Shown piece after piece: positions 1,646-35,138 of a stretch of 64,000 bases of DNA. Position 1 is the stretch's first letter. Every line of letters begins with the position of its first letter. A program made the translations under genes and the position numbers. The stretch lies in the IMG/VR virus record IMGVR_UViG_3300021400_002728, positions 293,154-357,153 of that record, one strand, 5' to 3'. The stretch comes from a virus. Taxonomy: Duplodnaviria > Heunggongvirae > Uroviricota > Caudoviricetes. The notes beneath the pieces are model-generated. The model was not told the origin of the DNA. It saw only the letters and a program-made list of their open reading frames with translations, and did not search any database.

Positions 1646-2080
1646 CTACTGTGCGATGTCTTTTTTATCATCATTCAATAAAAACTTTGGAATCCTATCT
1701 GGATTCTGCTCATAAAACTCTTTTCTGATTTTATTACATCTTTCATAGCTTGTACTATTAAATAGTTCATCTACATATTTAACTACTTCTTCGAAAGATA
1801 ACTTTTCAAAATACTCTGTGTTAGGTATACGATTCATATTATAATGTGTATGCAATGAAGTTTCAAGCGAATATAAATAAGTCATAGGACTAATCGCTAC
1901 TCTTAAAATTCGGTTTCCACCATTATTACTTCCAGATAAAGATCTGAACCTTTGAATAGGATTAGTCGTACGACCTATTTTAATATTTCCTTGTGGATAA
2001 TTCTGAAGTACATATATGTACAGTTGATTCTCATCTGCAACAGTTTCTCGTATATCTGAAAGATTCATATATACATTCAT
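1646..2080 (-). CDS. T5orf172-like GIY-YIG superfamily nuclease
   Basis: YIYVLQ...NIKIGRTTNPIQRF...LETSLH...EYF pattern. Confidence 0.7.
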   Translation of the reverse strand: MNVYMNLSDIRETVADENQLYIYVLQNYPQGNIKIGRTTNPIQRFRSLSGSNNGGNRILRVAISPMTYLYSLETSLHTHYNMNRIPNTEYFEKLSFEEVVKYVDELFNSTSYERCNKIRKEFYEQNPDRIPKFLLNDDKKDIAQ

Positions 2081-3723
2081 TTTATTTCCTTTTTATATTG
2101 CATTTTTATAGTACCACAGTCATATACTTGTAACCAGCCACATCTACGCATATTCTGAGATTCTGTTTCATTTGGGTTAAAATCAGATCCTAGCAATTTA
2201 GATAATTTATGTTTTTGTGCAGCTATACGATTAAGTGCTATATTACCTTTATAATATTTATATGATGGACCAGAGGTACTGATGATTGTAAAACCTAATG
2301 TTTTATAACCGTTTCCAGAAAATATAGCTCTATCTACATAAGATATAAGTTCAGTATATGGTTGATGTTTCATAAGTTTAGAGAACCCACCAATAACTTG
2401 AGTATTAAGTTTGGTACACATTCTAAGTAATTCTATTTCATTTTTCTTAAATCTAGAACTACCAATACATATTAACTGAACTAATTCATCATTATAGTAT
2501 AAACCTAATCTATAAGTAGATTTTACTTTTCCTTGTATATGATTGACATTTAAGAAATTGTCAGCTTCATTATGATCTACTTCTTGTATTTTACACTGTC
2601 TAGCATATATTTTAGTTTCATATTCACCTAATGCAGACAATATAATAGATTTACATATATCAGTTTTATTTATCCAGTCATAATCTGTAATATGAATCAG
2701 TCGTATACCAAGTTCTTCACATGCTATAGACTTATCTAAATGATAGTGTGACTCAGTACCAGCATTAGCTGAATGATACCAAATTCCATCTACTTCTATA
2801 GCTACTTTTATGTCTGGTAAATATACATCTAATTCTTTTGGATTAATAACTGATCTAGTATTTCTAATAATAGTTTTATTATAATGTTGTTTAACAAATG
2901 ATGCGATATTATTTTCTATAACTGACTTTCCAGTACTAGTAGGTTCATGTTTTAATATTTCATCTATATCAGAAATTTTAACATAGTATCTATCATTATA
3001 TAATAAAAGTCTATTATGAAATACTGAATCTTTTACACTATAACTTACATCTAATTCAGTTAATGGTATACATGCATTTTGACTACAGAATTCTTTACTT
3101 TTTAATTCTCTAGTTTCTTTTATTTTGGCTTGAGCTTTTTTAGACGCTCCGCCATTTTCACATCCATATCGTTCTAAGCATGTTTGCTTTATCTTATTTT
3201 TGCCATATTCTGATGCAAATATATTTTCACTACCATATTTTTCTACATTATTTTTCTTAATTTTATCTTGTATTTTTGTAGATGAAAATGGATTAATTGC
3301 ACCATATTTTCTTAGACAAGTTTCTTGTCGTTTTTTAACAGTAACTTCTGATGATATAGCATCTTTACACTTTTGTCGAGTCGAACTAAGTTGTAATATA
3401 GAAGCTACTCCATATTTTTTCATATTAGTTTCTCTTATTTTATCCATTTTTGCTTGACGCTTTTCATCAGTCATACTTGATTTAATTTTATCTTGCACAT
3501 CTGGATCTAAATTAGCACACTTAGATGAACAATATACTCTATATCCATCTATTGCACTTATAAAAGATGTAGGCTTTCCACATATTTTACATTTACCATC
3601 TGTATCAACTTTTATATATTGATCATAATAGTTTTTAGCTGTTATATTATGTGAATGTGTTAAGTGTGACGGTATGCCTAATTTATTTTTTAATTCTTTA
3701 CCACATATCTTACATATAATCAT
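2077..3723 (-). CDS. Free-standing putative homing endonuclease (C2H2/Cys-rich N-terminus, KYG-xx-N repeats, Vsr/PD-(D/E)xK-like nuclease, Hef-like C-terminal region)
   Basis: CKICGK...SHLTHSH, YCSSKC, repeated TCLxKYG units, ELDVYLPDIKVAIEVDGIWYHS. Confidence 0.75.
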   Translation of the reverse strand: MIICKICGKELKNKLGIPSHLTHSHNITAKNYYDQYIKVDTDGKCKICGKPTSFISAIDGYRVYCSSKCANLDPDVQDKIKSSMTDEKRQAKMDKIRETNMKKYGVASILQLSSTRQKCKDAISSEVTVKKRQETCLRKYGAINPFSSTKIQDKIKKNNVEKYGSENIFASEYGKNKIKQTCLERYGCENGGASKKAQAKIKETRELKSKEFCSQNACIPLTELDVSYSVKDSVFHNRLLLYNDRYYVKISDIDEILKHEPTSTGKSVIENNIASFVKQHYNKTIIRNTRSVINPKELDVYLPDIKVAIEVDGIWYHSANAGTESHYHLDKSIACEELGIRLIHITDYDWINKTDICKSIILSALGEYETKIYARQCKIQEVDHNEADNFLNVNHIQGKVKSTYRLGLYYNDELVQLICIGSSRFKKNEIELLRMCTKLNTQVIGGFSKLMKHQPYTELISYVDRAIFSGNGYKTLGFTIISTSGPSYKYYKGNIALNRIAAQKHKLSKLLGSDFNPNETESQNMRRCGWLQVYDCGTIKMQYKKEIK

Positions 3724-3783: not shown

Positions 3784-4575
3784 TTAATGAACTAATGTAT
3801 CATACATCATAACTGGTGTATTTTCTTCCATACATCCGGTACCACCGCAAATAAGTATACTGGTACTTGGTACAGTTTCATATAACTCGTCATTCTTATT
3901 TTGATCGTTAAGATACCAACCAATTGGACTGACTTTTTGCGTATTTGGATTAATCGTAAGTCCCATAGGAACGATATTCCAGAACTTATCATCATTAGGT
4001 GTAAATGAAGCTCTATTAGGAATAGGCTGTCTCTTTTTACACTCTACCATGATAACACCTTGGTCAATGAATGTTTTGATATAGTAGTAAGAATAATGAA
4101 TTGATTTATCTGACATTTCAGTAACAAATTCTTTCTTATCTACTTCCTTACCAGATCTATCATAATTGATATAGATATATCGACTATCATAGAAGATAAT
4201 TGAGGTACCCAAGCGTTTTTCAGCAATTTCATATACCCAATCATCAAAAGGTGCTTTTCTTAAAAATATCATTTTTACTAATATACCAAATGCTAAAATT
4301 ACTAATGAGATTACGACTAAACCAATACATATGTAAAGTCGATAAATCTTATTTGCAGTAATAGCTAAGAATATTGGATTCTGTGTCTTAACTGCTAAAA
4401 TTGCTGCACCAAAAGCAAGGGCAGCCATGACTAATCCGAAGATAGATAAAAATCTGCAAACCTTAAACATCTTATAGGCAATTTGATGTTTAGGTTGCAC
4501 ACCTTTTAGGACTTGGACGTCATCATGGGAATCAGCCATACTATCATGGACCTGTTTAGCTTCCTGTTGTGCCAT
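3784..4575 (-). CDS. N-terminal half of an FtsK/SpoIIIE/TcpA-like membrane ATPase fused to a 16-aa split-intein N-fragment
   Basis: Two TM helices, IVPMGL...PIGWYL...SILICGGTG (start of Walker A), then CMEENTPVMMYDTLVH-stop resembling intein block A. Confidence 0.75.
   Translation of the reverse strand: MAQQEAKQVHDSMADSHDDVQVLKGVQPKHQIAYKMFKVCRFLSIFGLVMAALAFGAAILAVKTQNPIFLAITANKIYRLYICIGLVVISLVILAFGILVKMIFLRKAPFDDWVYEIAEKRLGTSIIFYDSRYIYINYDRSGKEVDKKEFVTEMSDKSIHYSYYYIKTFIDQGVIMVECKKRQPIPNRASFTPNDDKFWNIVPMGLTINPNTQKVSPIGWYLNDQNKNDELYETVPSTSILICGGTGCMEENTPVMMYDTLVH
3787..3834 (-). mobile_element. Split intein N-fragment (Cys1, block A only)
   Basis: C-M-x-x-N-T-P-V-x-M-x-D matches intein block A pattern CLxxxTxVxxxD; begins mid P-loop (GGTG|C). 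Confidence 0.75.
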
Positions 4576-6297: not shown

Positions 6298-8817
6298 TTA
6301 ATTTTTTGGTTTTACATTAAGGTTAAGCTTAATTCTAGGTTTTTCAACTGTAGAACCTTCATCAGGAACAGCTTCGATCTGAAGTTCAACCATATTACTA
6401 GTCTGCTCAGAAGTATTGTTTACTGTAGTATTAACTGCAGTATTCATCATATTCTGAATCTTTTCTTCAACGTTCTGAGGAATAGTCGGTGGAACTATCT
6501 CGGTAGGGAATACAAGATCTTCTTTAGTAATCATATACTTGTTAGCTTCATCACCATTGAAATTAGCTATATGCTGCTTAACTGAATTATTGAAAATTCC
6601 CTGAATATCTCTAATTCTGCACTGCCAATTTCCAAGATATTCCCAAACAGTATTTCTTGCTTCATCAGTAGTATTAAATCCCTTATTTATAGCAAGCATA
6701 TCAAAGATCTGAAGTAACTGACTATTATCATAAGTAGGGAATTCATATACTAATGTAAATAGATTCTTCATAGAATCGATTACGGGTGAAGCATAATCAC
6801 CAAGAACGATAGTTACATCAGTATTCTCATTGATAGCAGTATTGATTGCTGAAACTGCTTCACCAGAGAAGTTATCATTATTTTCAACTAACATATTATA
6901 GTTCTTAATATACAGTACACCGCCAGATGCATAAGAGATAATTGCTTGAGCTCTCTTAGCAGTATGTCCTACGAATGAACCTTTAAGAAGTTCTGCAGGA
7001 ATTTCGAGGTACTTATTCTCTGTGATGTAACCTAACTGGTAAAGATAACCAGTAAGGATCTTTGTAATAGAAGTCTTACCACAACCTTCATCACCAATAA
7101 GAAGTACTTTCTGATGAGTAATCTGATTGTAGAACTCTTTCTGACTTCTAAGAATATCGATCTCTTTCTTAAACGAATCAAGACCAATAAGACATGCAAG
7201 ATCTCTATCAGGATCTTCAGAACCAACCTTCATTCTAGGCTTAAGTTCTGACAATCTAATAATCTGCTCATCTAACTGATCTGCTGCTGAAGCATTCTTT
7301 AATTCATGCTGAAGTACTTTTCTACGAGCATCTGCATAAATCTGAATATCTTCAGAAGTAATAATCTGATTGTTATTACCTGTCTTGGTAACTCTATCTA
7401 CGTAGTTATCCATAATAGCATCAACTGCGTTACGAACTGTACGAGCATTACCAAAGGCTTTAGATTTCTTTTCAAGAGCAAATGCATCTTTAAGAAGTGG
7501 AATAGCTTCATCACTAAGTTTGTAAGAGTTCTTATTATAATCTTTAATGAAGTAATTGAAAATGTCAATCATTTCATCTTCGGTATAATCAGGGAAGTAG
7601 ATAGTATGCTTTACACGAGAAGTAAAACCTTCGTTAGTAGCAAACAATCTAGTCATCTGCTCTTCATAACCGGCTAAGATACAAACAAAATCTTTACGAT
7701 GATCTTCCATTGCTTTCAAAAGAACACCAATTACATCGAAGCCTCTCTTTTCCATAAGATATGCTTCATCGATGAATAGTACTCCACCGTATGCATATTC
7801 AATAATTGCCATTGCGCGGCTTGTATCACCTGCGCAAAGGTAATCACCAGAGATTTCTATATATTGATTATCTTTAATGTAACCTAAATCATAAAGGATC
7901 TTGGTAACGATACGAGCAACGGTTGTTTTACCAGTACCAGCAGAACCAAGGAATGCTAAGTGACAACCATTATTTGAATCTTTACCAAAGAACTTAATTC
8001 TATTCTTGAACTTCTCAATCTGATCTTTAACTGAATCAAGACCGATCATATCATGAAGTTCCTTATCAGAATCTTTTGCACCTTCAAATATCTTAGTATC
8101 AATGTCCTTAGGAAGGTATTCTGATCTCTTCTTATTAGGATTCTTTGCATCTACAATAGGTGTAGTTCCATTTTCTTCAGAATCTTCCATATTAAGGAAA
8201 GGACAATTACAAGGAAGATCAAACATTACTGAAACATAAGGAGTAGCATGACCTGCCTGTTTAAGATAATCATCTACGCAGTTAAGAATAATGTTTGGAT
8301 CAATGTTAGGTTTTGTAAAGTATACCATTGCGATAGTCTTCATTTTTTCAGAAGTTCTATACGTCATAGGAACAGTAGTCATAAAATCATTAAGATTAGT
8401 TTCGATCTTCTTAAGGGTTGATTTCTGTCCACGGTATACTAAGAACTTGAATAAGATTCCAAGACCTATACAAATTATAAAAGCAAGAATTGCAGGAAGT
8501 ATAGCACCTTTTGCACATGTTCCAAGTTCACCCTTAAGTGCGTGTACAAATCCGAGTTTAATCATATTTCCAATAAGTGCAACTATCCATGCAAAAACAG
8601 ATAACACTAATGATATACCGATAGTTTTAGGTAAACTTCTCAGTACACCACCAATGAATTTTTCCTTATTATAACAACCAGTCATAAATGGAGTGTCATA
8701 ATCTGGAACTATTTTTAAGTTTTTGTAAAAGGCAGTTAACTGCTTCTCATATTTTTCAACAACCTTAGATTGTTCATCTAATGCAGTAAACCAGTCTTTT
8801 CGACTTCGTATTTCCAT
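6298..8817 (-). CDS. Membrane-anchored tandem AAA+ ATPase, CbbX/SpoVK-like
   Basis: Two TM helices; MIGLDSVK, GSAGTGKTT, GGVLFIDEAY, ILAGY, FGNARTVRN; second degenerate AAA module GDEGCGKT with Walker B lost (VLYIKN). Confidence 0.85.
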   Translation of the reverse strand: MEIRSRKDWFTALDEQSKVVEKYEKQLTAFYKNLKIVPDYDTPFMTGCYNKEKFIGGVLRSLPKTIGISLVLSVFAWIVALIGNMIKLGFVHALKGELGTCAKGAILPAILAFIICIGLGILFKFLVYRGQKSTLKKIETNLNDFMTTVPMTYRTSEKMKTIAMVYFTKPNIDPNIILNCVDDYLKQAGHATPYVSVMFDLPCNCPFLNMEDSEENGTTPIVDAKNPNKKRSEYLPKDIDTKIFEGAKDSDKELHDMIGLDSVKDQIEKFKNRIKFFGKDSNNGCHLAFLGSAGTGKTTVARIVTKILYDLGYIKDNQYIEISGDYLCAGDTSRAMAIIEYAYGGVLFIDEAYLMEKRGFDVIGVLLKAMEDHRKDFVCILAGYEEQMTRLFATNEGFTSRVKHTIYFPDYTEDEMIDIFNYFIKDYNKNSYKLSDEAIPLLKDAFALEKKSKAFGNARTVRNAVDAIMDNYVDRVTKTGNNNQIITSEDIQIYADARRKVLQHELKNASAADQLDEQIIRLSELKPRMKVGSEDPDRDLACLIGLDSFKKEIDILRSQKEFYNQITHQKVLLIGDEGCGKTSITKILTGYLYQLGYITENKYLEIPAELLKGSFVGHTAKRAQAIISYASGGVLYIKNYNMLVENNDNFSGEAVSAINTAINENTDVTIVLGDYASPVIDSMKNLFTLVYEFPTYDNSQLLQIFDMLAINKGFNTTDEARNTVWEYLGNWQCRIRDIQGIFNNSVKQHIANFNGDEANKYMITKEDLVFPTEIVPPTIPQNVEEKIQNMMNTAVNTTVNNTSEQTSNMVELQIEAVPDEGSTVEKPRIKLNLNVKPKN

Positions 8818-8922: not shown

Positions 8923-9534
8923 TCAATTATTTTTTACTATATTTATCTGCTCATCATCTTTTAGACCGTATCTATCTCTAAGAGCCTTTTCTACATTGCT
9001 AGTATTATTAAATAGCTCGTATACTTCACTATCAAGCATGTGATCCCAATAGTCATCATCATTAGTTTCAACATGAATTTCAGTCAACTGGCCGAAGAAG
9101 TATGCCGCAAATGTATCTACCTTAATTGCATCTTTTACAAATACAATTTCTACCCAATCACTTTGATTATATCCACGCGCAGTATTCTGTTCTAAATCAA
9201 GACCGGGATTGATGATCTGCGCAACTTCTACAATAAATTCAGTATCATCACTATATCTACAGTTCTGATATGCCTTATAAACTCTTTCAAGCTGATCTTT
9301 GGTGTAGCTATCTTCATATTGCATAAGATCGTCAACATCCCAATCATAATTATCTAAGTCTGCAATAAGTTCTTTAGCTTTATTCCACCAAGATGCTTCT
9401 TCTATAGAAGAATATTCACGGTTTCCAATAACTACGACTTTCTCATCAAAGTCTTCACATACATATTCTTTCCATTCATCATGATTATATAAGAAGCTAA
9501 GATCTCCAGCTCCATCAAATGTAATTGTTGCCAT
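8923..9534 (-). CDS. Hypothetical acidic protein
   Basis: AAGGAGG RBS, 203-aa ORF. Confidence 0.7.
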   Translation of the reverse strand: MATITFDGAGDLSFLYNHDEWKEYVCEDFDEKVVVIGNREYSSIEEASWWNKAKELIADLDNYDWDVDDLMQYEDSYTKDQLERVYKAYQNCRYSDDTEFIVEVAQIINPGLDLEQNTARGYNQSDWVEIVFVKDAIKVDTFAAYFFGQLTEIHVETNDDDYWDHMLDSEVYELFNNTSNVEKALRDRYGLKDDEQINIVKNN

Positions 9535-9552
9535 GACGATTCCTCCTTAATT

Positions 9553-10143
9553 TTAAGTTTCATATCTACCAGTATCAGTAGAAATACAGAAACATGGTAA
9601 TTCTCCAACAAGTTCAATTTTATTTATAATCATTCCATTACAATAAAGTTCTGCGTTATACTTACCAATAAGATAATCCATACCTTTACAAGTAAGCCAA
9701 TATGTATTCTCATCTACTTTCTGAGGTTCACTCTTAACGACAACCTGCTTAAGATAGATTCTTTTAACCTTATCAAAATGAAAATCATAAATTTCAGTTT
9801 CAGCGTTTGTTATAATAGGATCTACCTGTACATTGATAGGCTCATTATAACAGAATTTTTCTATAATTGATTTTTCTTCTAGTGTGAGTTCTTCATCACT
9901 AGAAATATCATAACTTTCCTCAAGTGGTACAAATGTACAGAACTGATCAAGTTCTGCTTTTGCTTCTTTAGGAAGTTTACTTACATCTATAAGTAATACA
10001 TGATTATAAGCGCATGTAAATTCTTCATTTCTATTATATGTGATCTTGCAGCAAAGCTCAGGATGTGTTCTATGAATCTGAGTAACTCTACTACCATCTT
10101 TCATAATATCTCCGACTTTAACGTCTTTCCACTGTTTTACCAT
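9553..10143 (-). CDS. Stand-alone intein/Hint core fragment lacking block A and block G (candidate middle piece of a three-part split intein)
   Basis: KQWKDVKVGDIMKDGSRV (post-block-A motif), EEFTCAYNHVLLI (block B His), YWLTCKGM, IINKIELVGELPCFCISTDTGRYET-stop (block F with Cys); own GGAGG RBS. Confidence 0.75.
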   Translation of the reverse strand: MVKQWKDVKVGDIMKDGSRVTQIHRTHPELCCKITYNRNEEFTCAYNHVLLIDVSKLPKEAKAELDQFCTFVPLEESYDISSDEELTLEEKSIIEKFCYNEPINVQVDPIITNAETEIYDFHFDKVKRIYLKQVVVKSEPQKVDENTYWLTCKGMDYLIGKYNAELYCNGMIINKIELVGELPCFCISTDTGRYET

Positions 10144-10507
10144 AAATTCCCTCCGATATGTCTAGTTGACTAAACTTATCATACTTATCAATATATCTAG
10201 TAAGTTTTTCATACTGTTTGAAAATATCTGTTTCTAAATAATCAAGCATAATCTGTCTAGCTTTTTCATCATCTCGTTCATAAAGCAGGATAAATTTACC
10301 ACCTAGCACAGTACCTATATCAGATTTTGCATATACTTTACCATGACCATTTTCAGCACGTGTATATACAATAATATAGTTTCCTTTTCCATATTTGTTT
10401 TCAGCAAACTTAAATGGACTAGGATCTTCTTCAGTATACTGCTCTTTTACTACTTCTATTAAACCTTTATCGTATTCAAAATAGTAGTGGTAAATGTCTT
10501 TTTTCAT
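10118..10507 (-). CDS. Hypothetical protein
   Basis: ORF with RBS; overlaps the start of the intein-core gene. Confidence 0.65.
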   Translation of the reverse strand: MKKDIYHYYFEYDKGLIEVVKEQYTEEDPSPFKFAENKYGKGNYIIVYTRAENGHGKVYAKSDIGTVLGGKFILLYERDDEKARQIMLDYLETDIFKQYEKLTRYIDKYDKFSQLDISEGIYGKTVERR

Positions 10508-21581: not shown

Positions 21582-24101
21582 TTATAGTTCATCAATCTTT
21601 TTTGTAAAAAAGGATGATGATTCAACTTTGATCTTTATAGTCTTTCCATTTACCTTAGCTGTAAGTGTAGCCTTACCTGCATTATCAGTAACTACAATCT
21701 CCTGATTAGAATTTACATATGCTACAGAAGGATTATTACTCTTAAAGATAATTGGTCTAGACATTTCAATTGAAGCAAACTCCAGTGGAATTATATTATT
21801 AGTAGCAGATACAACCTTATATGTCTTCTTAGATAATGTCACACCTTCATTTACAATTGACGGATCTTCTACAAATACTTTTATGTTGTATTCATTTCCA
21901 TCCTTATTTGTAGTAAGTGTGACGGTACCAGTCTTAAGAGCTTTAATCTTATTACCTTTTACTGATACTATTGTATTATCTGAAGACATCCAATTTTTAA
22001 GACCTTTGATCTTAATTGTCTTAGAGCTATTTACATTGATATGTAAGAGTCTATTTGCTGATATAGTAGGTTCTTTTACCTTAACCACACAATTAAATCT
22101 AGATCCATTTACACATGCAGAAATAGTCGAAGTACCTTTATTTAAGGCAGTTATTGTACCATCTTTATCAACAAGTACTGCATCTGGATTACTGCTATAC
22201 CAGAATGTGTTATACTTGTCAGATAAACCAGTTGATAAGTCTACTACTTTACCTGCATCCAGAGTCATCTTTTTAGTGAGTTTAGACTCTTCAATATGTA
22301 CTGCTATCTTCTGTGTACCATTTGTAATCAATACTTCTTTATCTCCTGTTGCCTTTTTAGCAGTAGCGATATTCTTTTTACTGATCTTAAAGTACTCAGA
22401 ATCTGTACTATTGACTAATGTAAATGCACCTATATCAAATTTCTGACCTTTTACTAAATAAATGTCAGTAGTAAATGATGTTATAGATGGAGCAGGATTA
22501 AAAGGATCTTCAATTGATGCAGGTGGCATCGGTGGTCCAATAATTAACTCACCAGTAATGGTTGCAACCTGTGTACACTGTAAGCCTTCTGTACATTCCC
22601 ATACAATAGCATACTTTCCAGGACCATCTACAAATGTATCAATTCCAGGACCTGAAATAGGATAAGCTTCTCCTGAACCATTATAACTAACATTAGCTTT
22701 AGCTCTATCCCACATCTGTTTAATTGTACCATCTTTTGTAAGATCCCAACTTATATCATTTGCAGATAAAGTTACAGTTCTAGATGGTCTCTTGTATGTT
22801 ATAGTAGCAGTTAAAGTGTGCGTCTCATATAATAACGAAGCCTCATAAGTTTTAGATGATGATGTAGAATCAATTAACTTAATTGTTTTTGTAGTAATAG
22901 TCTTCGTCGATACATCAGACCCGCGCTCTATCCTGATTGTCATTTCACAAGATGTAGGCATCTGATTGAAACTTCCATTCCATTTAGCAGATTGTACTTT
23001 ATATACAGCTTCTGGTGCACGGAACTCTTTATGAGCTGAAAGTATCTGTTCATTAAAGAATAGGAATGCTTCATACTGTACATATGTACCATCTTGATTC
23101 TTAGCAGACATTGATATGTTTGTAGTTTCTTTTACTATCTTTTCTGCATTCGGATTAGCTTCATCCTGTAATGTAAATTCAGCTTTAGAAGGAGCTTCTG
23201 TAAGACTTCCACCTGTCCAAACTACGTCTATTACTTTATAGACTGTTTTAACTATAGGTGGATCAATTGTTTTATCGTATACACGAACATCAGCGTACTC
23301 ATTACCATTAAAGGTTACTTTAGCTGTGAAAGTTGCAGATTCAGTTGTCTCTTCGGTAAGAATAGCATTACCAGTGACGATCGCTTTGTTATTCTGATAT
23401 ATTGTACCGTCATAAGTAGGTAAACTTAATAACGAAATCATATATCCAATTATCTTATCTCGACATTTTCCAGTATCAATATTAGACAAGTTTTTAACAC
23501 TATTCAGTGCATCCATTATATCTTTAGAAGCAAAACCTGATTTGTTCTTAAAATATGTTTCAACTTCTGCTAACCAAGCATGTGCTTCTTCTGAGGAACC
23601 ATCTGTAAACCCTTGACCATTATTGATAAGTTTTACAACAGTAGCTTCATCTATATGATTAGACTTCTCAATGTTGTAATTATAGTTGGCCCTTGCAGAG
23701 TCTTTACTTATACGATTAAGTATATCTATAATCGACTCTTTATAACCATTTGTTGCAATACTTTCTGAGTTTCTTGCAGATTTGATTAGATTATCTAAAT
23801 CTGTATACTCAGCAGGATGAACTATCTCATTGTAGTAGTAGACATCTTCTAACCACTGCCATGCATGGAAACATGAATCATTTACGGACTTACATCTACC
23901 GGCCAATGTTGCAACTGGTTCGGTATATGTAAATACAAAATCGACATTCATGTTCTCTGAAGGCTTTTTAGGCCAAGCAGCTTCTTCTAACTTCCACTTA
24001 TCATAAGCGACTATACCGTCTGCTTGAGCTGTGATTGGAACGCCTGTGAAAATCATAATAGCACTAAGTAAGAATGTAATTATACGATTTTTGAGCTTCA
24101 T
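21582..24101 (-). CDS. Secreted protein with C-terminal bacterial Ig-like (Big_2-type) repeats
   Basis: Sec signal ending TAQA; repeated WxSSNPxxVxVxxxGxITAxxxGT units. Confidence 0.8.
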   Translation of the reverse strand: MKLKNRIITFLLSAIMIFTGVPITAQADGIVAYDKWKLEEAAWPKKPSENMNVDFVFTYTEPVATLAGRCKSVNDSCFHAWQWLEDVYYYNEIVHPAEYTDLDNLIKSARNSESIATNGYKESIIDILNRISKDSARANYNYNIEKSNHIDEATVVKLINNGQGFTDGSSEEAHAWLAEVETYFKNKSGFASKDIMDALNSVKNLSNIDTGKCRDKIIGYMISLLSLPTYDGTIYQNNKAIVTGNAILTEETTESATFTAKVTFNGNEYADVRVYDKTIDPPIVKTVYKVIDVVWTGGSLTEAPSKAEFTLQDEANPNAEKIVKETTNISMSAKNQDGTYVQYEAFLFFNEQILSAHKEFRAPEAVYKVQSAKWNGSFNQMPTSCEMTIRIERGSDVSTKTITTKTIKLIDSTSSSKTYEASLLYETHTLTATITYKRPSRTVTLSANDISWDLTKDGTIKQMWDRAKANVSYNGSGEAYPISGPGIDTFVDGPGKYAIVWECTEGLQCTQVATITGELIIGPPMPPASIEDPFNPAPSITSFTTDIYLVKGQKFDIGAFTLVNSTDSEYFKISKKNIATAKKATGDKEVLITNGTQKIAVHIEESKLTKKMTLDAGKVVDLSTGLSDKYNTFWYSSNPDAVLVDKDGTITALNKGTSTISACVNGSRFNCVVKVKEPTISANRLLHINVNSSKTIKIKGLKNWMSSDNTIVSVKGNKIKALKTGTVTLTTNKDGNEYNIKVFVEDPSIVNEGVTLSKKTYKVVSATNNIIPLEFASIEMSRPIIFKSNNPSVAYVNSNQEIVVTDNAGKATLTAKVNGKTIKIKVESSSFFTKKIDEL

Positions 24102-24490: not shown

Positions 24491-25525
24491 CTACATAATT
24501 TCTTTTAGATAGCTAATATAGAACTCTATTTCTTGTCTAGACCATAATACTACATAATTAAGATTATTCTTCTTTGCAGTATCTCTCTTTTTTAGATCAC
24601 TTTTTGTCCAAACATTAATAGCATTAGCATATTGTTTGTGTCCATTTTTTGCCTTATCTTTCCATATAGCTAAAGTATCTAGATCTGCTTGATTATTTTT
24701 ATCAAAGAAGTGGTTATTATGTGACCAATATATGTTAAGTTCTACATAAATATCATAATCAATTAAATAAAAATCACAATAAAATGGATATTTTGCTGAA
24801 CTATATTGTGTCTTAAATCTTATACCAAGATTAGTTAATTCTTTCTCAAAATAATCTTCATCACTAGAATAATTACCATTCTGTCTCATAGTAGCATTAG
24901 CCTTTATTCTTGCATCTCTGCTATTACCTGGATTAGTTGTTCCATATTTTTTAATAGATGTAGATATAATCTTGTCTTTTACTGATGGAAGTTGATAAAC
25001 ATTAGTATATTGTTCACCATATTTGCGTTTGATTGTACTAACTATACTCTCTTTATGAGAAGCTGATTTATTATAGCAAGTCATACAACCAATTCCAATT
25101 AAATGTTTTGTAGTTTGTTGACAAACTTCACACCATTTTACTGTATCTTGTTCATGAGCTTTTTTCATATTTACTGAACCTGTTTTTAATCCTACTTTAC
25201 TAGAAGCTATTCTAGCTTTTTCAGACTTATTTCGTTCAATAATATGTTGTCTAGCTTGTTCTATATTTTTAGGATTACTTCTAAAAGTTTGACTCTGTTT
25301 TTCTATTTTGTCAGAATCTTTATTAGAACATTTACTACTACAATATGTATAAAAACCATTTGCAAGATTTATAAATTTAGTATCATTTCCGCAAACTTTA
25401 CATGTATGGTTACTGTCAATATACTGTATATAGTACAAATCAGATGACATTTTATGTGTTTGTCTAATATGTGAACTTAAAGCTTTATAGCCTATAAAGT
25501 CTTTTTCACAAATTTTACACTTCAT
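24491..25525 (-). CDS. Free-standing putative homing endonuclease (C2H2 N-terminus plus Vsr-like nuclease)
   Basis: CKICEK...SSHIRQTH, YCSSKC, KYGxxN repeats, YPFYCDFYLIDYDIYVELNIYWSH; start overlaps the stop of the fractured ATPase gene. Confidence 0.75.
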   Translation of the reverse strand: MKCKICEKDFIGYKALSSHIRQTHKMSSDLYYIQYIDSNHTCKVCGNDTKFINLANGFYTYCSSKCSNKDSDKIEKQSQTFRSNPKNIEQARQHIIERNKSEKARIASSKVGLKTGSVNMKKAHEQDTVKWCEVCQQTTKHLIGIGCMTCYNKSASHKESIVSTIKRKYGEQYTNVYQLPSVKDKIISTSIKKYGTTNPGNSRDARIKANATMRQNGNYSSDEDYFEKELTNLGIRFKTQYSSAKYPFYCDFYLIDYDIYVELNIYWSHNNHFFDKNNQADLDTLAIWKDKAKNGHKQYANAINVWTKSDLKKRDTAKKNNLNYVVLWSRQEIEFYISYLKEIM

Positions 25526-26807
25526 CTGATTGTACCTCCACAGACTGATCTATATAGATCGCTTTTCCACCACCAGTTTGATAAATATATGCTGCATCAA
25601 ACGGATATGATTCTCCTCCATTCCACTTATTATTCTTAGTATCTGTAAATAAGAATAAATGATTATCAGAGTTAATCATAAAACAACGTACAGATTTATT
25701 CTTAACTACTTTTACATCTGAAATTAAATAATCTGTAAGATTTCCAGGAATAATGTCACCAGATTTAACCTCTGATGCAGTTACTGGACATATTTTATCT
25801 TTTCGTAAAATTGCTAATTTATGCACATCATCTGCATATAAAACTATACTATCATCACTATACTGACTCATTGCCTCTAATGTAAACTTATACAGTTTAT
25901 TAGATTCATGAATTTCGTATACTGCAAGTACTTTGACTGGTTTATTTCCATATCCAAATACTTCATCACCGACTTCAATCGTCTTTATAGTTTTATATCC
26001 TTTAGTAGTAGGTACTATTGTATTTAACCCTAAAGGAGAACCTACACATAACGCCTGAGGTGCAGATGGTGTATCAACAGTTTTAGCAATTTTGCCATCT
26101 TCATATATGTAGTTAGATCTACCTTCATTCTTGATCGAGTTCAAATTCCAGGAAACTTCTCCAAGTCCTGAAAGACCAATAGGAATAAATTCAGGTGGTC
26201 TTAACCAACTACCTTTATATTTTGCAATATGAGGTGGAAGAGGTGTACCAACAAAGGCACATTCTCTTGCAGCAAAGTCAAATTCATTAACCCACTCATA
26301 GTTAGGTAGGTACTTATTCAATGACAAACACAAGTTAACTGCAACTTGTTCCTTAAACGTATTAGGATTGATCTTAATCGTGATCTTGTTAATTTTAGTA
26401 CCTTCATAACCTAGTTGGAAAGGTGGATTGTTAATGTCTTTTAATTCAAATTCGCCAGTTTCTTTATTTTTAACCTTCGAATCGTTAGAAATAACTGGCT
26501 CAAGAACTCCAAATACTGCTAGCAATTCTTCTCTTTGTTTGGCGACTATAACTTTTTTAATAGTAGCAAGAATTACCATCGTAATCAAAATACCAAATGC
26601 ATAAAGGCCTAATAATACCCAAAATATTTTATGACCTTTAAGTGGTAAAACTTGGAATAGTACACCTAAACCAAAAATTCCTACAAGTATAAGGGCATCT
26701 CTTTTTGAATATTGATAACCAACACTATTGCCGTCGCTGATGTTCAGTATTTTATTAGTCGCAAACTGAGCAATAGCAACGACTAAGAAAAATACAAATA
26801 TAAACAT
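25515..26807 (-). CDS. N-terminal half of an FtsK/SpoIIIE/TcpA-like membrane ATPase with a complete cis intein and a terminal split-intein N-fragment, both in the P-loop
   Basis: Three TM helices; FIPIGL...VSWNL...PQALCVGS|[153-aa intein]|TGGGK|AIYIDQSVEVQSDEV-stop. Confidence 0.8.
   Translation of the reverse strand: MFIFVFFLVVAIAQFATNKILNISDGNSVGYQYSKRDALILVGIFGLGVLFQVLPLKGHKIFWVLLGLYAFGILITMVILATIKKVIVAKQREELLAVFGVLEPVISNDSKVKNKETGEFELKDINNPPFQLGYEGTKINKITIKINPNTFKEQVAVNLCLSLNKYLPNYEWVNEFDFAARECAFVGTPLPPHIAKYKGSWLRPPEFIPIGLSGLGEVSWNLNSIKNEGRSNYIYEDGKIAKTVDTPSAPQALCVGSPLGLNTIVPTTKGYKTIKTIEVGDEVFGYGNKPVKVLAVYEIHESNKLYKFTLEAMSQYSDDSIVLYADDVHKLAILRKDKICPVTASEVKSGDIIPGNLTDYLISDVKVVKNKSVRCFMINSDNHLFLFTDTKNNKWNGGESYPFDAAYIYQTGGGKAIYIDQSVEVQSDEV
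25518..25562 (-). mobile_element. Candidate split-intein N-fragment (Ala1, 15 aa)
   Basis: AIYIDQSV directly after GGGK resembles Ala-start block A (ALxxDTxV) at the GK|S/T insertion site. Confidence 0.55.
25578..26036 (-). mobile_element. Mini-intein, class-3-like (Pro1, block F Cys, C-terminal Gln, +1 Thr)
   Basis: PLGLNTIVPTTKGYKTIKTIEVGDEVFG; YADDVHKL; VRCFMINSDNHLFLF; YIYQ|T; removal restores GSTGGGK. Confidence 0.85.
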
Positions 26808-32343: not shown

Positions 32344-35138
32344 TATGAACATCCTTTACATACATTAGCAAAATCGTCTGCATTAACTGTACCATGGTGT
32401 TTTACTCTATGTTGAACTTCATCAATCTTTCCGTCATTAAACGCATCAAGATAAGATTCAGTAATATAACCAGTAACTCTTCTAAGTCTCTGAATGTTAG
32501 TACTCTTACATGCTGGACATTCATTTCCAATCTCACCAGACCAACCGCAATCTCTACAAGTATCAAGACTAAGATTGATTCCAAGATAAGGAATATCCTT
32601 TGACATAGCATACTGAACGAGCTTTCTAAGAGCTTTAATATTCTTGCTAGCTGCAGTATCAATTTCAACATAAGTGATACATCCAGCATTCGAATATCCA
32701 GTAAGCTGAGCTTCAAGATCAATCTTCTCAAATGGAGTCATATCGTGCCATACAGGAATATGTATAGAGTTAGTAAAGAACTCTTTATCAGAAACATCCT
32801 TAATTACTCCATATTTTGATCTAAACTTGCTAAGAGATGTATGACAAAGAGACTCTGCAGGTGTATAGTAAACACCAAAGTTAAGATGAATTGTCTGTCC
32901 CTGAATTGTATATGTGTCTGCTTTGTATTCAGCACACTTCTTATTAAAGAGAGCTTCAATTCGCTTTGCTAACTCCATACCCTCTTTAGTAGTATGATCC
33001 TTACCAATAAGAATCTGAAGAGTTTCAGCTACACCAATCTGGCCAATAGCAAGTGTACCATGTTTAAGTGCTGAAATGATTCCTTCCTTAGGAATATATC
33101 CAAGCATTGTTCTGTTCTGATACATAAATGCTGCAGAAGCAGGACTCTGACTTGCAATAAGTTTAAATCTTTCTACAAGACCATCTTTACACTCTTCGAT
33201 CTTTCTAGTAAGAATATCAAAGAAGTCCTCAATGTTCTTCTCACCAATACGACCTTTAGCCTTCATAGCAAGAGTAGGAAGAATAACTGTAGCAGGAGCT
33301 AAGTTACCACGACCATCTTTCTGATTTCCTGAATAGAAATAATCCTTAGGTGGACGATTATACTTAATAATTTCATCAATAATATAGTTGAAATTAAAGT
33401 TTGCATCATACCCATTGTATGTTCTACACGTTTTATCTAATGTTACCATTAGCACTGACTATATCTTCTACTTAAATGTTAATTCATTTAATCACAATTC
33501 GCACATGTGAGGATTTCTCCATAGTCTTCCGCTTTGGTTCTCAGGTGGGTCTTGTTTCCTTCTTCCACCGACGGTGCTTATCTCCGTCCCTACTCCCTTA
33601 CATTCATCGGGGATAGTCGATACACTTTACCATTAAGGTCTTAGCACGGTCTCATCAATCATTCATTACACATACAAATAATGAAGGACCTAACCGTTAG
33701 CCACATTTCTGTGACACCCTCGAGCGAGGTTCAAAAGATTTTAGATGAGCTGCAGTTTACACTTACCCATCGTGCTCATGATTTCTACAGGATCAATGAT
33801 AGTCTCATCAATTTCAACTACATCTTCATTAAGAACCATCTTATAATGTCTAGCTTCATTTTTATTTTCCTTAACCCAATTTGCAAGCTTAGTCATCTTC
33901 TCTTTAGATAACTTAGCAAGACAAGCTCTCTTATGCTCTACATCTTTCATTCTGCCAGCAGTATCAATTGACCACTGAGCATTTACATAGTTAGGATAAA
34001 ATCTCTTTGCAGTACATCTAAGTGCCTTAAGGAAAATATCATAGTTAGGTGTGCCAGGCATACCATTAATGTCTGTATGATACTGCAAGATACCACAAGG
34101 GAAAATAGGTGTCTTATGAAGAGGACCTGTTCCATCAAGTGTAGCATCAAGAATAGCATGAGAAACCATTCTACCTTCAGTAAGTGTACAAGTACCATAG
34201 TTGATAGAACTAAATGGTAACTGCTGTCCACTTCTTGACTGAAGAGAGTTGAGATTATGTACAAGAGCTTCAGCTCCCTGATGTACTTCTCTAACAGTTA
34301 AGTCATAAGCATACTGGAAGCAAGGATCATCTTTATAGTCATCAATAGAAAGATCTGCACAATTAGCAGGTACTTTCCAATCTTCATGCTGAATATACTT
34401 CTTACCATCACGAAGATGCTTAAAGAATGACCATCTAACACTAGGAATAGCTGACCAGTCTAAGTGAGTATAAGCAACTCCACCAAACTGTTGAAGTGAT
34501 TGAACCTGCATATAAACTGCTGCCTGCTGAAGGAATGTGCTAGCAGATTTTGCAGGTCTAATATCTGTCTGTTTGATATGAACACCATCTCTATTCATAT
34601 TATCAATAGGAATAGACAAACAGTTATGCATTCCTGACGAATAAGAATCAAGATCATGTGTATAGACTTCGTTGTTATTATGATTGTCTCTGAAAGTTTT
34701 ACTCATAGTCTTAAGAGCATTGTCTTTAAGAAGGACTCTAGCTGCTTCATTCATTCTTCCTGAGAAAGATCTTTCATCACAGTTAGCATTAGAGTTCTCT
34801 ATATTAGAACCACTGAGTTTCTTTTCAAAGGCTTTAATAATGTCTGACTGATAGACATGTTCTTTCTGTCTATCATAATGATATGTAATGTAACTCTTGG
34901 CTACTTCTTTATAAGCAGTCTGCATCAGACGATTTTCTACCATGTCTGATAATTTCTCTGCTTCTACAATATTTACATTTTTCTTTGTGAGTTCTTCTTC
35001 TATCTGATCTGCAATTCTATTAGCCATAAAATCTGGTACATTTTCAGATTCAGTAGCAGCAGAAGCTAATTTTATGGAATTAACAATTTTGGACTTATCA
35101 AAGTCCTCTAACTTTTTATTATATTTTCTAACTCTCAT
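32343..35138 (-). CDS. nrdD: Anaerobic (class III) ribonucleoside-triphosphate reductase with ATP-cone; two exons 35138-33765 and 33428-32343 (819 aa spliced)
   Basis: ATP-cone, HNCLSIP, QQFGG, STMG|CRT thiyl-Cys motif restored by splicing, CRDC...CPAC, RRVTGY glycyl-radical motif. Confidence 0.95.
33429..33764 (-). ncRNA. Group I self-splicing intron in nrdD (336 nt, no ORF)
   Basis: 5' exon ends in U, intron ends in G; P1 GAUGGGU/GCUCAUC with U-G at the splice site; P10 CUGCA/UGUAG; P7 GACUA/UAGUC with AAGAUAUAGUC; excision restores in-frame MGCRT. Confidence 0.92.

Follow-up and report, generated by a model that had tools for sequence, protein, structure and literature searches.

The window, the stretch of 64,000 nucleotides analyzed here, encodes a free-standing 196-aa protein. 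It is probably the central part of a class-3-like intein that is naturally split into three pieces and whose splicing would restore the Walker A loop of an FtsK-like ATPase. The observations behind this proposal are the fold of the protein, its boundaries and their conservation, the junction at which its putative partners meet and the co-occurrence of the pieces, and from them we infer binding, chemistry and splicing. The virus record to which the window belongs (hereafter G000; positions 293154-357153) is 394,266 bp long, carries direct terminal repeats, and has a GC content of 32%, 39 tRNA genes and the standard bacterial code. The features on which the argument turns are listed in Table 1.

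Table 1. Features of the window that bear on the proposed three-piece intein (window coordinates; junctions are marked by a slash).
Feature	Coordinates	Strand	Evidence
Free-standing Hint (intein) core, 196 aa, no extein	9553..10143	-	ORF call, AF2 model, structural matches, homologue lengths
Ribosome-binding site GGAGGG, 5 nt upstream of ATG	10149..10154	-	Sequence reading
N-terminal Hint half, residues 1-53, starting just past block A (KQWKDVKVGD)	9985..10143	-	Alignment, family counts, structural alignment ranges
Acidic insert, 93 aa, residues 54-146, alpha/beta domain directly after block B	9706..9984	-	Model secondary structure, charge, conservation
C-terminal Hint half, residues 147-196: YWLTC strand, helix, block F ..LPCFCISTDTGRYET	9556..9705	-	Family counts, block F alignment
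FtsK-like ATPase N-fragment, 430 aa	25515..26807	-	ORF reading, relatives
Proposed IntN tag (block A only), 15 aa, AIYIDQSVEVQSDEV	25518..25562	-	Directly after TGGGK, C-terminus of FtsK-like N-fragment
Zn-finger gene, putative homing-endonuclease family, directly downstream of 430-aa fragment	24491..25525	-	Weak zinc-finger Pfam matches
Second FtsK-like N-fragment, 263 aa, end GGTG/CMEENTPVMMYDTLVH, Cys1 tag at 3787-3834	3784..4575	-	Sequence, relatives

The reading frame of the core opens with ATG, closes with TAA and lies on the strand shared by almost every gene of the window. The initial annotation had credited it with a ribosome-binding site of its own and had placed the AAGGAGG box of the next gene right past its stop; the former was located as given in Table 1 and the latter at 9542-9548, followed by the ATG of the next gene (9532-9534), the last two within 21 nt of the stop. 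No frameshift is required to account for this ORF, as had been argued from these signals. The motifs quoted at that stage were likewise recovered in the translation, namely KDVKVGD (residues 6-12), TCAYNHVLL (residues 43-51), YWLT (residues 148-151) and IELVGELPCFCIS (residues 176-188). Block B reads C[A/S]YxH[IV][LF]L across the family, so that the T-x-x-H signature of this block retains its invariant His (His48, codon 10000-10002) and has Ala or Ser in the position of the Thr (B:7). The acidic insertion, formerly put at roughly 90 aa, measures 93 aa and contains 21 Asp or Glu residues against 11 Lys or Arg; its conservation (0.64) is lower than that of the two Hint halves (0.75 and 0.80), and in an exhaustive structure comparison it matches ferredoxin-like folds weakly (residues ~47-171, Z 4-4.9).

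No sequence match to the 196-aa ORF was found in Pfam, PHROGs or the PDB, and its Hint fold was revealed by structure only. An AlphaFold2 model built from a 38-sequence alignment (A1) has a mean pLDDT of 92 and forms a Hint/intein domain. Its best Foldseek rows are inteins, the best 23 re-aligned PDB rows are all Hint domains, and so are the best 27 rows of an exhaustive comparison against 48,161 chains (inteins, hedgehog and BIL domains); above Z 5, every structural row is an intein, hedgehog or BIL domain, save one tied at Z 5.2. The closest structure is 6bs8, a class 3 DnaB intein (Z 8.5, with an rmsd of 1.9 A across 96 residues), and next come MchDnaB-1 (PDB 6riy, Z 8.2) and gp41-1 (Z 8.1-8.2); the best rows have an rmsd of 1.9-2.1 A over 96-97 residues. 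Model and structure comparison together place the protein in the Hint superfamily. In every case, the structural match begins at intein residue 13-23, and it spans residues 13 to 117/118 of ~125 in gp41-1 and 13 to 136 of 145 in MchDnaB-1. A match that runs from about residue 13 to about eight residues short of the end implies that both terminal strands are absent, block A at the start and block G, with its His-Asn, at the end, which is what the initial annotation had expected of a structure prediction when it described an intein core with neither splice-junction block. The 196-aa protein, whose start corresponds to intein residue ~13-14, has no block A with a residue-1 junction fused to an N-extein, and its C-terminal Hint half stops where block G would start, the chain ending ..GRYET at the end of block F with no His-Asn and no +1 residue of a C-extein to follow.

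These boundaries are not peculiar to the window. A search of 5.8 billion proteins returned 103 relatives of the core at 56-95% identity, on contigs of up to 532 kb, and, fragments aside, all of them are 190-200 aa long with the exception of one of 213 aa. The family start is M(x)K(x)WKDIKVGD and about 96% of its members end in TG[RK]YET; 37 columns of alignment A1 are invariant, those of His48 and Cys186 among them, and the CFC motif of block F is present in 97 of 98 members. The core family occurs in about 100 phage-like genomes. No extein-bearing homologue was found among longer proteins, in itself weak evidence. Fixed ends across the whole family imply that the window copy is not a private truncation, and the possibility, entertained at the outset, of a unique truncation of full-length inteins fails, since about 100 homologues have the same two boundaries.

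The candidate N-side partner of the core is the 430-aa fragment, in which N-terminal hydrophobic (putative membrane) stretches precede a domain leading into an FtsK-type Walker A; there follow a contiguous Pro1 Hint domain inserted at VGS/TGGGK, the TGGGK itself, the tag and a stop codon. Homologues of this fragment in the complete phage genomes G001-G003 and in metagenome contigs likewise end in TGGGK plus a tag. Among 120 cluster representatives, 99 have a tail of 9-23 residues after TGGGK, with the consensus [A63/S36]-I-Y-[IV]-x-Q-x-[VI]-[ED]-[VIL], in which Gln6 is found in all 99 and position 1 is Ala in 63 and Ser in 36. The invariant Gln6 and the fixed hydrophobic pattern indicate that the tag is under selection, and the alternation of Ala and Ser that position 1 is not a required nucleophile, a property shared with class 3 inteins. 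The N-tag looks like a block A. Seven of the 120 representatives are unsplit and read TGGGKSVTLRNVIFHCIEHNNK across the junction; the sequence of unsplit relatives across the split point is TGGGKSVTLRNVIFH, the TGGGK running on into SVTLRN. The contiguous Hint domain of the 430-aa fragment (25578-26036, minus strand) is a separate element, inserted two residues into the Walker A. It starts with Pro (VGS/PLGLNTIVPTTKG..), has a Cys at block F:4, ends ..YIYQ/T in the window copy and ..YTYN/T in relatives, and has the look of a class-3-like intein whose first residue is Pro and whose last is Gln. Relatives of 251-276 aa that lack it read VGSTGGGK plus the tag.

A C-side counterpart was found at ~231.3 kb of G000, where a short gene preceded by an AAGGAGG box encodes METAKRGLISHN/SVTLRNVIFHCI. 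The gene starts M..(K/R)GLISHN/SVTLRNVIFH, with a tag of 10-15 residues, and the corresponding starts are MSTNKGLISHN/SVTL.. in G002 and MSMKSNKKKGLISHN/SVTL.. in G003. By its sequence, the C-tag is a classic block G, its last two residues being His and Asn and the next one Ser+1. The uninterrupted TGGGK/SVTL of the unsplit relatives, taken with the tagged fragments, marks a true insertion point in the P-loop. Since both tags together amount to only ~21-29 residues, neither forms a Hint domain without a body, and the parts missing between them appear to be exactly the content of the 196-aa protein. Blocks A (tag), B and F (core) and G (C-tag) each occur once, on three polypeptides of which the middle one is extein-free, and the three pieces are found together in G000-G003, the genomes in which the C-tag was sought. 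A three-chain complex prediction (core, N-fragment tail and C-tag) scored 0.58, against 0.52 with chain 1 replaced, and is given no weight for or against binding. An 'ET' fission scar, suggested by the end of the core (..YET) and the start of the C-tag (MET..), was ruled out, as the overlap is not kept in G002 or G003. Further pieces of the TGGGK ATPase are scattered.

We postulate that the acidic N-tag and the basic C-tag would dock onto the core by strand complementation, completing the Hint fold as its first and last strands. A block F Cys of the core, most likely C184 (C186 lies on the same face), would attack the K/A(S) bond and take the N-extein as a thioester; given that Ala and Ser are interchangeable at position 1 of the N-tag, this Cys is the most likely initiating nucleophile. 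The acyl group would move to Ser+1, cyclisation of Asn would release the C-tag, and an O-to-N shift would yield TGGGK-SVTL..., that is, an intact P-loop. The core, extein-free, would be chemically unchanged when the reaction ends, which leaves room for turnover. A protein that has no extein and emerges unchanged from a class-3-type pathway may even act as a true multi-turnover enzyme, and it is tempting to extend the proposal to a natural intein-derived ligase acting on any proteins with N- and C-tags of ~10 residues, with three mutually orthogonal core/tag sets rebuilding two multiply fractured ATPases; this broader scheme we put forward tentatively and consider unlikely to hold as a whole.

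Class 3 inteins use a block F (C2:4) Cys (PMC7891396), through a pathway described for MP-Be DnaB (PMC2807308) and AceL NrdHF (PMC7891396), and the 196-aa core would seem to belong with them in part. The Cys that had been assigned to F:4 is present; by alignment with the contiguous Hint domain, it is more likely C184 (codon 9592-9594) than C186 (codon 9586-9588), since CFMINSDNHLF of that domain aligns with CFCISTDTGRY of the core, and C184 aligns too with the Cys of a 118-aa core described below. The two Cys share one face of their strand. The remainder of the WCT triplet deviates, with Leu or Phe rather than Trp at B:12 and, in the proposed C-tag (GLISHN), Ser rather than Thr at G:5. The W-x-T motif noted earlier does exist, as YWLT, but its Trp is the one ordinarily found in the strand that follows block B, and the motif is not part of the triplet. 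The position of the block F His is occupied by an invariant Gly192 in the 196-aa core family.

In G000, short tags mark three junctions and three Hint bodies are encoded as free proteins; genome scans with TIGR01443 and PF07591 missed every one of the short tags. At the Pro-start junction, a further fragment of the second ATPase ends ...IQNN/PLSIDTLVEVKD (Pro1 tag) in G001 and G002, and a gene at G000:195.5 kb reads ..MDKNMIFTHN/C... A core of 118 aa (G000:238533-238889) has a Trp at B:12 as well as a Cys at F:4. It aligns collinearly with the Pro1 contiguous Hint domain (E 1e-5), and Pro tag plus 118-aa core reproduces the first 24 residues of that domain in register; the best match of its model (pLDDT 71) is the class 3 MchDnaB-1 intein (Z 8.8, 28% identity). 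The Pro1 tag accordingly appears to pair with the 118-aa core. A low-stringency tblastn for the remaining pieces of the second ATPase gave only noise, and a match at 234.4 kb (SKSYLEKNIV...) was rejected as an ATPase piece because it lies in an unrelated long ORF.

For the TGGGK/S junction, ten of ten split contexts (G000-G003, L002, L051, L052, L053, L056 and L057) have a homologue of the 196-aa core at a distance of 1.4-15 kb from the split gene. Two of these, L056 and L057, are devoid of the contiguous Pro1 Hint domain. Conversely, no core homologue was detected within ±10 kb in either of the two unsplit contexts, L054 and L055 (tblastn, complemented in L054 by a profile search); these two contexts are relatives of one another, and the stretch inspected in each was ±10 kb. 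Gene distance alone was rejected as a partner test, for genes with an Ala-tag and with a Cys-tag are both often within 10 kb of the core, and, distance being uninformative, partners were assigned through the split/unsplit comparison and a rearrangement in G003. The view that the core would suit the Ala-start fragment at 25518-25562 is backed by the TGGGK/SVTL junction, by Ala/Ser at position 1 and by co-occurrence with the split.

The initial annotation had also remarked that the core lies nearer the Cys-start fragment at 3787-3834, and it does, being ~5 kb from that gene in the window and 4-8 kb from it in L001, L009, L010, L051 and L052. The 16-aa tag of this fragment is block-A-like and in register with the core start, which would fit a core serving the Cys junction, but we deem such a pairing very improbable. 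Full-length relatives read GGTGSGKS at this junction and others have a canonical IntN of ~90-100 aa there, and the C-partner, at G000:268.6 kb, opens with an IntC of 41 aa in which blocks F and G are both present (...SVFHN/SGKS). Since this IntC has a block F of its own, which that of the core would duplicate, the Cys junction needs a piece with block B and without block F. Exactly this gap is filled by a 164-aa protein (G000:285871-286365, minus strand), which over its C-terminal ~90 aa shares 50% identity with the canonical IntN found at this site in relatives, minus block A. The 164-aa protein is kept in G001-G003 at a distance of 5-11 kb from the Cys-tag gene. This holds for G003 too, in which the Cys-tag gene is 5 kb from the 164-aa protein and 100 kb from the 196-aa core. 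It is kept as well in L054 and L055, which preserve the same syntenic block with the Cys-tag fragment and, as noted above, have no homologue of the 196-aa core nearby. The Cys-start fragment thus appears to be better served by the 164-aa core than by the 196-aa core. With bodies available for the other two junctions, the 196-aa core is left, by elimination, to serve TGGGK/S, and its preference over the 118-aa core at this site would rest on association and homology.

Two further explanations dispense with splicing at TGGGK/S. The core might be a catalytically dead Hint clamp or regulator that binds both tags and either keeps the two ATPase halves in contact or sets the timing of their assembly, and the non-canonical Ala/Ser at B:7, the Gly192 in place of the block F His, the lack of Trp at B:12 and the frequent Ala at tag position 1 all speak for it. 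We consider this a serious rival, if an unlikely one, though a P-loop interrupted between its Lys and its Ser would scarcely work unspliced: a Walker A left broken at GK/S and encumbered with two peptide tags is hard to square with ATP binding. Moreover, His48, Cys184/Cys186 and the ..SHN/S junction are kept across a divergent family, which is unexpected for a mere clamp, and a working class 3 intein with a deviant triplet exists (MCT, in AceL NrdHF; PMC7891396). The core might instead be a domesticated or selfish Hint-fold remnant whose role, exerted for instance through the acidic insert, is unrelated to the fractured ATPases. Such a remnant would agree with the absence of Pfam, PHROG and PDB sequence matches and with a 93-aa insert that carries no assigned role, but the boundaries of the core match exactly the two strands found as tags at the insertion junction, the core co-occurs with the split junction, and its Hint halves are more conserved than the insert, so that we regard this explanation as improbable. 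A spliced P-loop assembled around the 196-aa core remains our preferred reading.

The C-extein gene of G000 has in-frame stops shortly past the junction, in a 21-nt stretch with two stops, and this copy may hence need translational bypass or may be defective. The stretch is a candidate for programmed bypass (G000:~231,215-231,262, minus strand, equivalent to L038:1215-1262). Twelve codons past GLISHN/S, the frame reads ..CAT TGT ATT TAG GCG AAA GCC TAA AGA ATC GAA.. (FHCI, stop, AKA, stop, RI EHNN), whereas unsplit relatives read FHCIEHNN at this site; the 21 extra nt are flanked by matching Ile codons, ATT for take-off and ATC for landing, and the TAG right after the take-off codon falls within a 7-bp hairpin with a GAAA tetraloop (-9.3 kcal/mol, z -3.1). 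The reading frame of G001 stops at the same TAG, and the insert is absent from G002. The bypass of T4 gene 60 has a similar layout of take-off, stop in a hairpin and landing. The last fragment of the second ATPase (~195.5 kb) has a single in-frame TAG after ATT (..THN/CAARI, stop, VVAGRLEQ..) inside conserved sequence. Genome-wide recoding of stop codons was rejected, since ORFs in code 11 tile the genome and long ORFs end in TAA (241), TGA (48) and TAG (23). One of the 39 tRNA genes (G000:114279-114350) encodes a suppressor tRNA with anticodon UUA.

Genes of the putative endonuclease family adjoin the broken ATPase genes. Besides the Zn-finger gene downstream of the 430-aa fragment, a related gene comes after the 263-aa fragment (2077-3723) and contains DUF7487, and the position of these two genes next to the fragments corresponds to a fractured-gene layout. 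At least seven copies of the family were counted (2077-3723 and 24491-25525 in the window; G000:170149-171190, 178322-179389, 231304-232410, 266128-267162 and 268598-269671), mostly next to broken ATPase genes, and DUF7487 was seen only in the copy at 2077-3723. A 60-aa ORF at 171187-171369 is a decayed duplicate of the start of a neighbouring DUF87/VirB4-like ATPase gene, and the endonuclease ORF at 178322 runs in frame into a copy of the tag of the host gene (..VQNNPLSADTLVKTKD). In the C-extein gene of the first FtsK-like ATPase (G000:264384-268601, minus strand), the ATG of the IntC overlaps (ATGA) the stop of an endonuclease-type gene, and the gene is interrupted several times, by ORF-less stretches and by another endonuclease gene. 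The Cys-tag gene at L051:16557-17701 is broken between ..ILI and CGGTG by ~360 nt with no ORF, probably an intron. The N-terminal ~75 aa of the 164-aa protein have the appearance of a second, partial Hint copy, YKITLDDGSFIIADENYKLTLF resembling block B. Elsewhere in the window, an NrdD-like ORF (33741-35138, 465 aa) covers positions 4-401 of a 718-position profile, the NrdD proteins of relatives being 824-855 aa long; with such partial cover, this gene for an anaerobic ribonucleotide reductase may likewise be fragmented. Two 839-aa ORFs (6298-8817 and 21582-24101) were rejected as paralogues, as they match different Pfam families (AAA+ and Big_2).

If the proposal is correct, the fragmentation of inteins goes further in nature than is known, and essential-looking ATPases of giant phages would be assembled post-translationally from scattered genes, possibly adding a layer of regulation. 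It would also make available ready-made and probably orthogonal ligation systems, in which each partner bears a tag of ~10-15 residues and catalysis is left to a core of its own; small tags with a separate core are the format wanted for protein labelling and logic gates.

Inteins are known as one-gene or two-gene elements, and the IntN of atypically split inteins comprises ~16-25 aa. In the atypically split natural VidaL intein (PDB 6vgw) and the consensus Cat intein (PDB 6dsl), as here, a short N-tag supplies the first strand or strands and the rest is provided in trans, and the model of the 196-aa core aligns to VidaL from chain residue 23 onward. In VidaL-type inteins, however, the large fragment extends through block G to a fused C-extein, whereas the one described here stops before block G and is extein-free. 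Closer in architecture are the engineered three-piece inteins (Ssp DnaB, Rma DnaB, Npu DnaE and gp41-1), which are functional (10.1101/2023.01.30.526203) and which also consist of N, M and C pieces with an extein-free M, all three having to assemble for trans-splicing. Those are laboratory constructs of class 1 in which a larger share of the fold is usually retained by the N or C pieces, while the present system is natural, conserved in about 100 phage-like genomes and class-3-like, with tags of ~10-15 residues on each side. A 2023 preprint on Npu DnaE and gp41-1 states that the splitting of inteins into more than two fragments is unproved in nature (10.1101/2023.01.30.526203), and a full-text literature search for natural three-piece, tripartite or free-standing inteins found engineered cases only, so that the three-gene layout proposed here would so far have been reported for laboratory-made inteins alone. 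The class 3 inteins MP-Be DnaB, MchDnaB-1 and AceL NrdHF have in common with it the conserved block F:4 Cys and a non-essential residue 1 (Ala/Ser), but they are encoded by one or two genes, whereas here the intein is divided over three genes and the WCT triplet is incomplete. Finally, fractured genes (Dassa et al. 2009, PMC2677866) show the same association of a host gene broken at an intein site with an adjoining free-standing gene of homing-endonuclease type; in those cases the intein is split in two and its halves are adjacent, whereas the pieces considered here lie 15-90 kb apart and the body of the intein would constitute a third gene.
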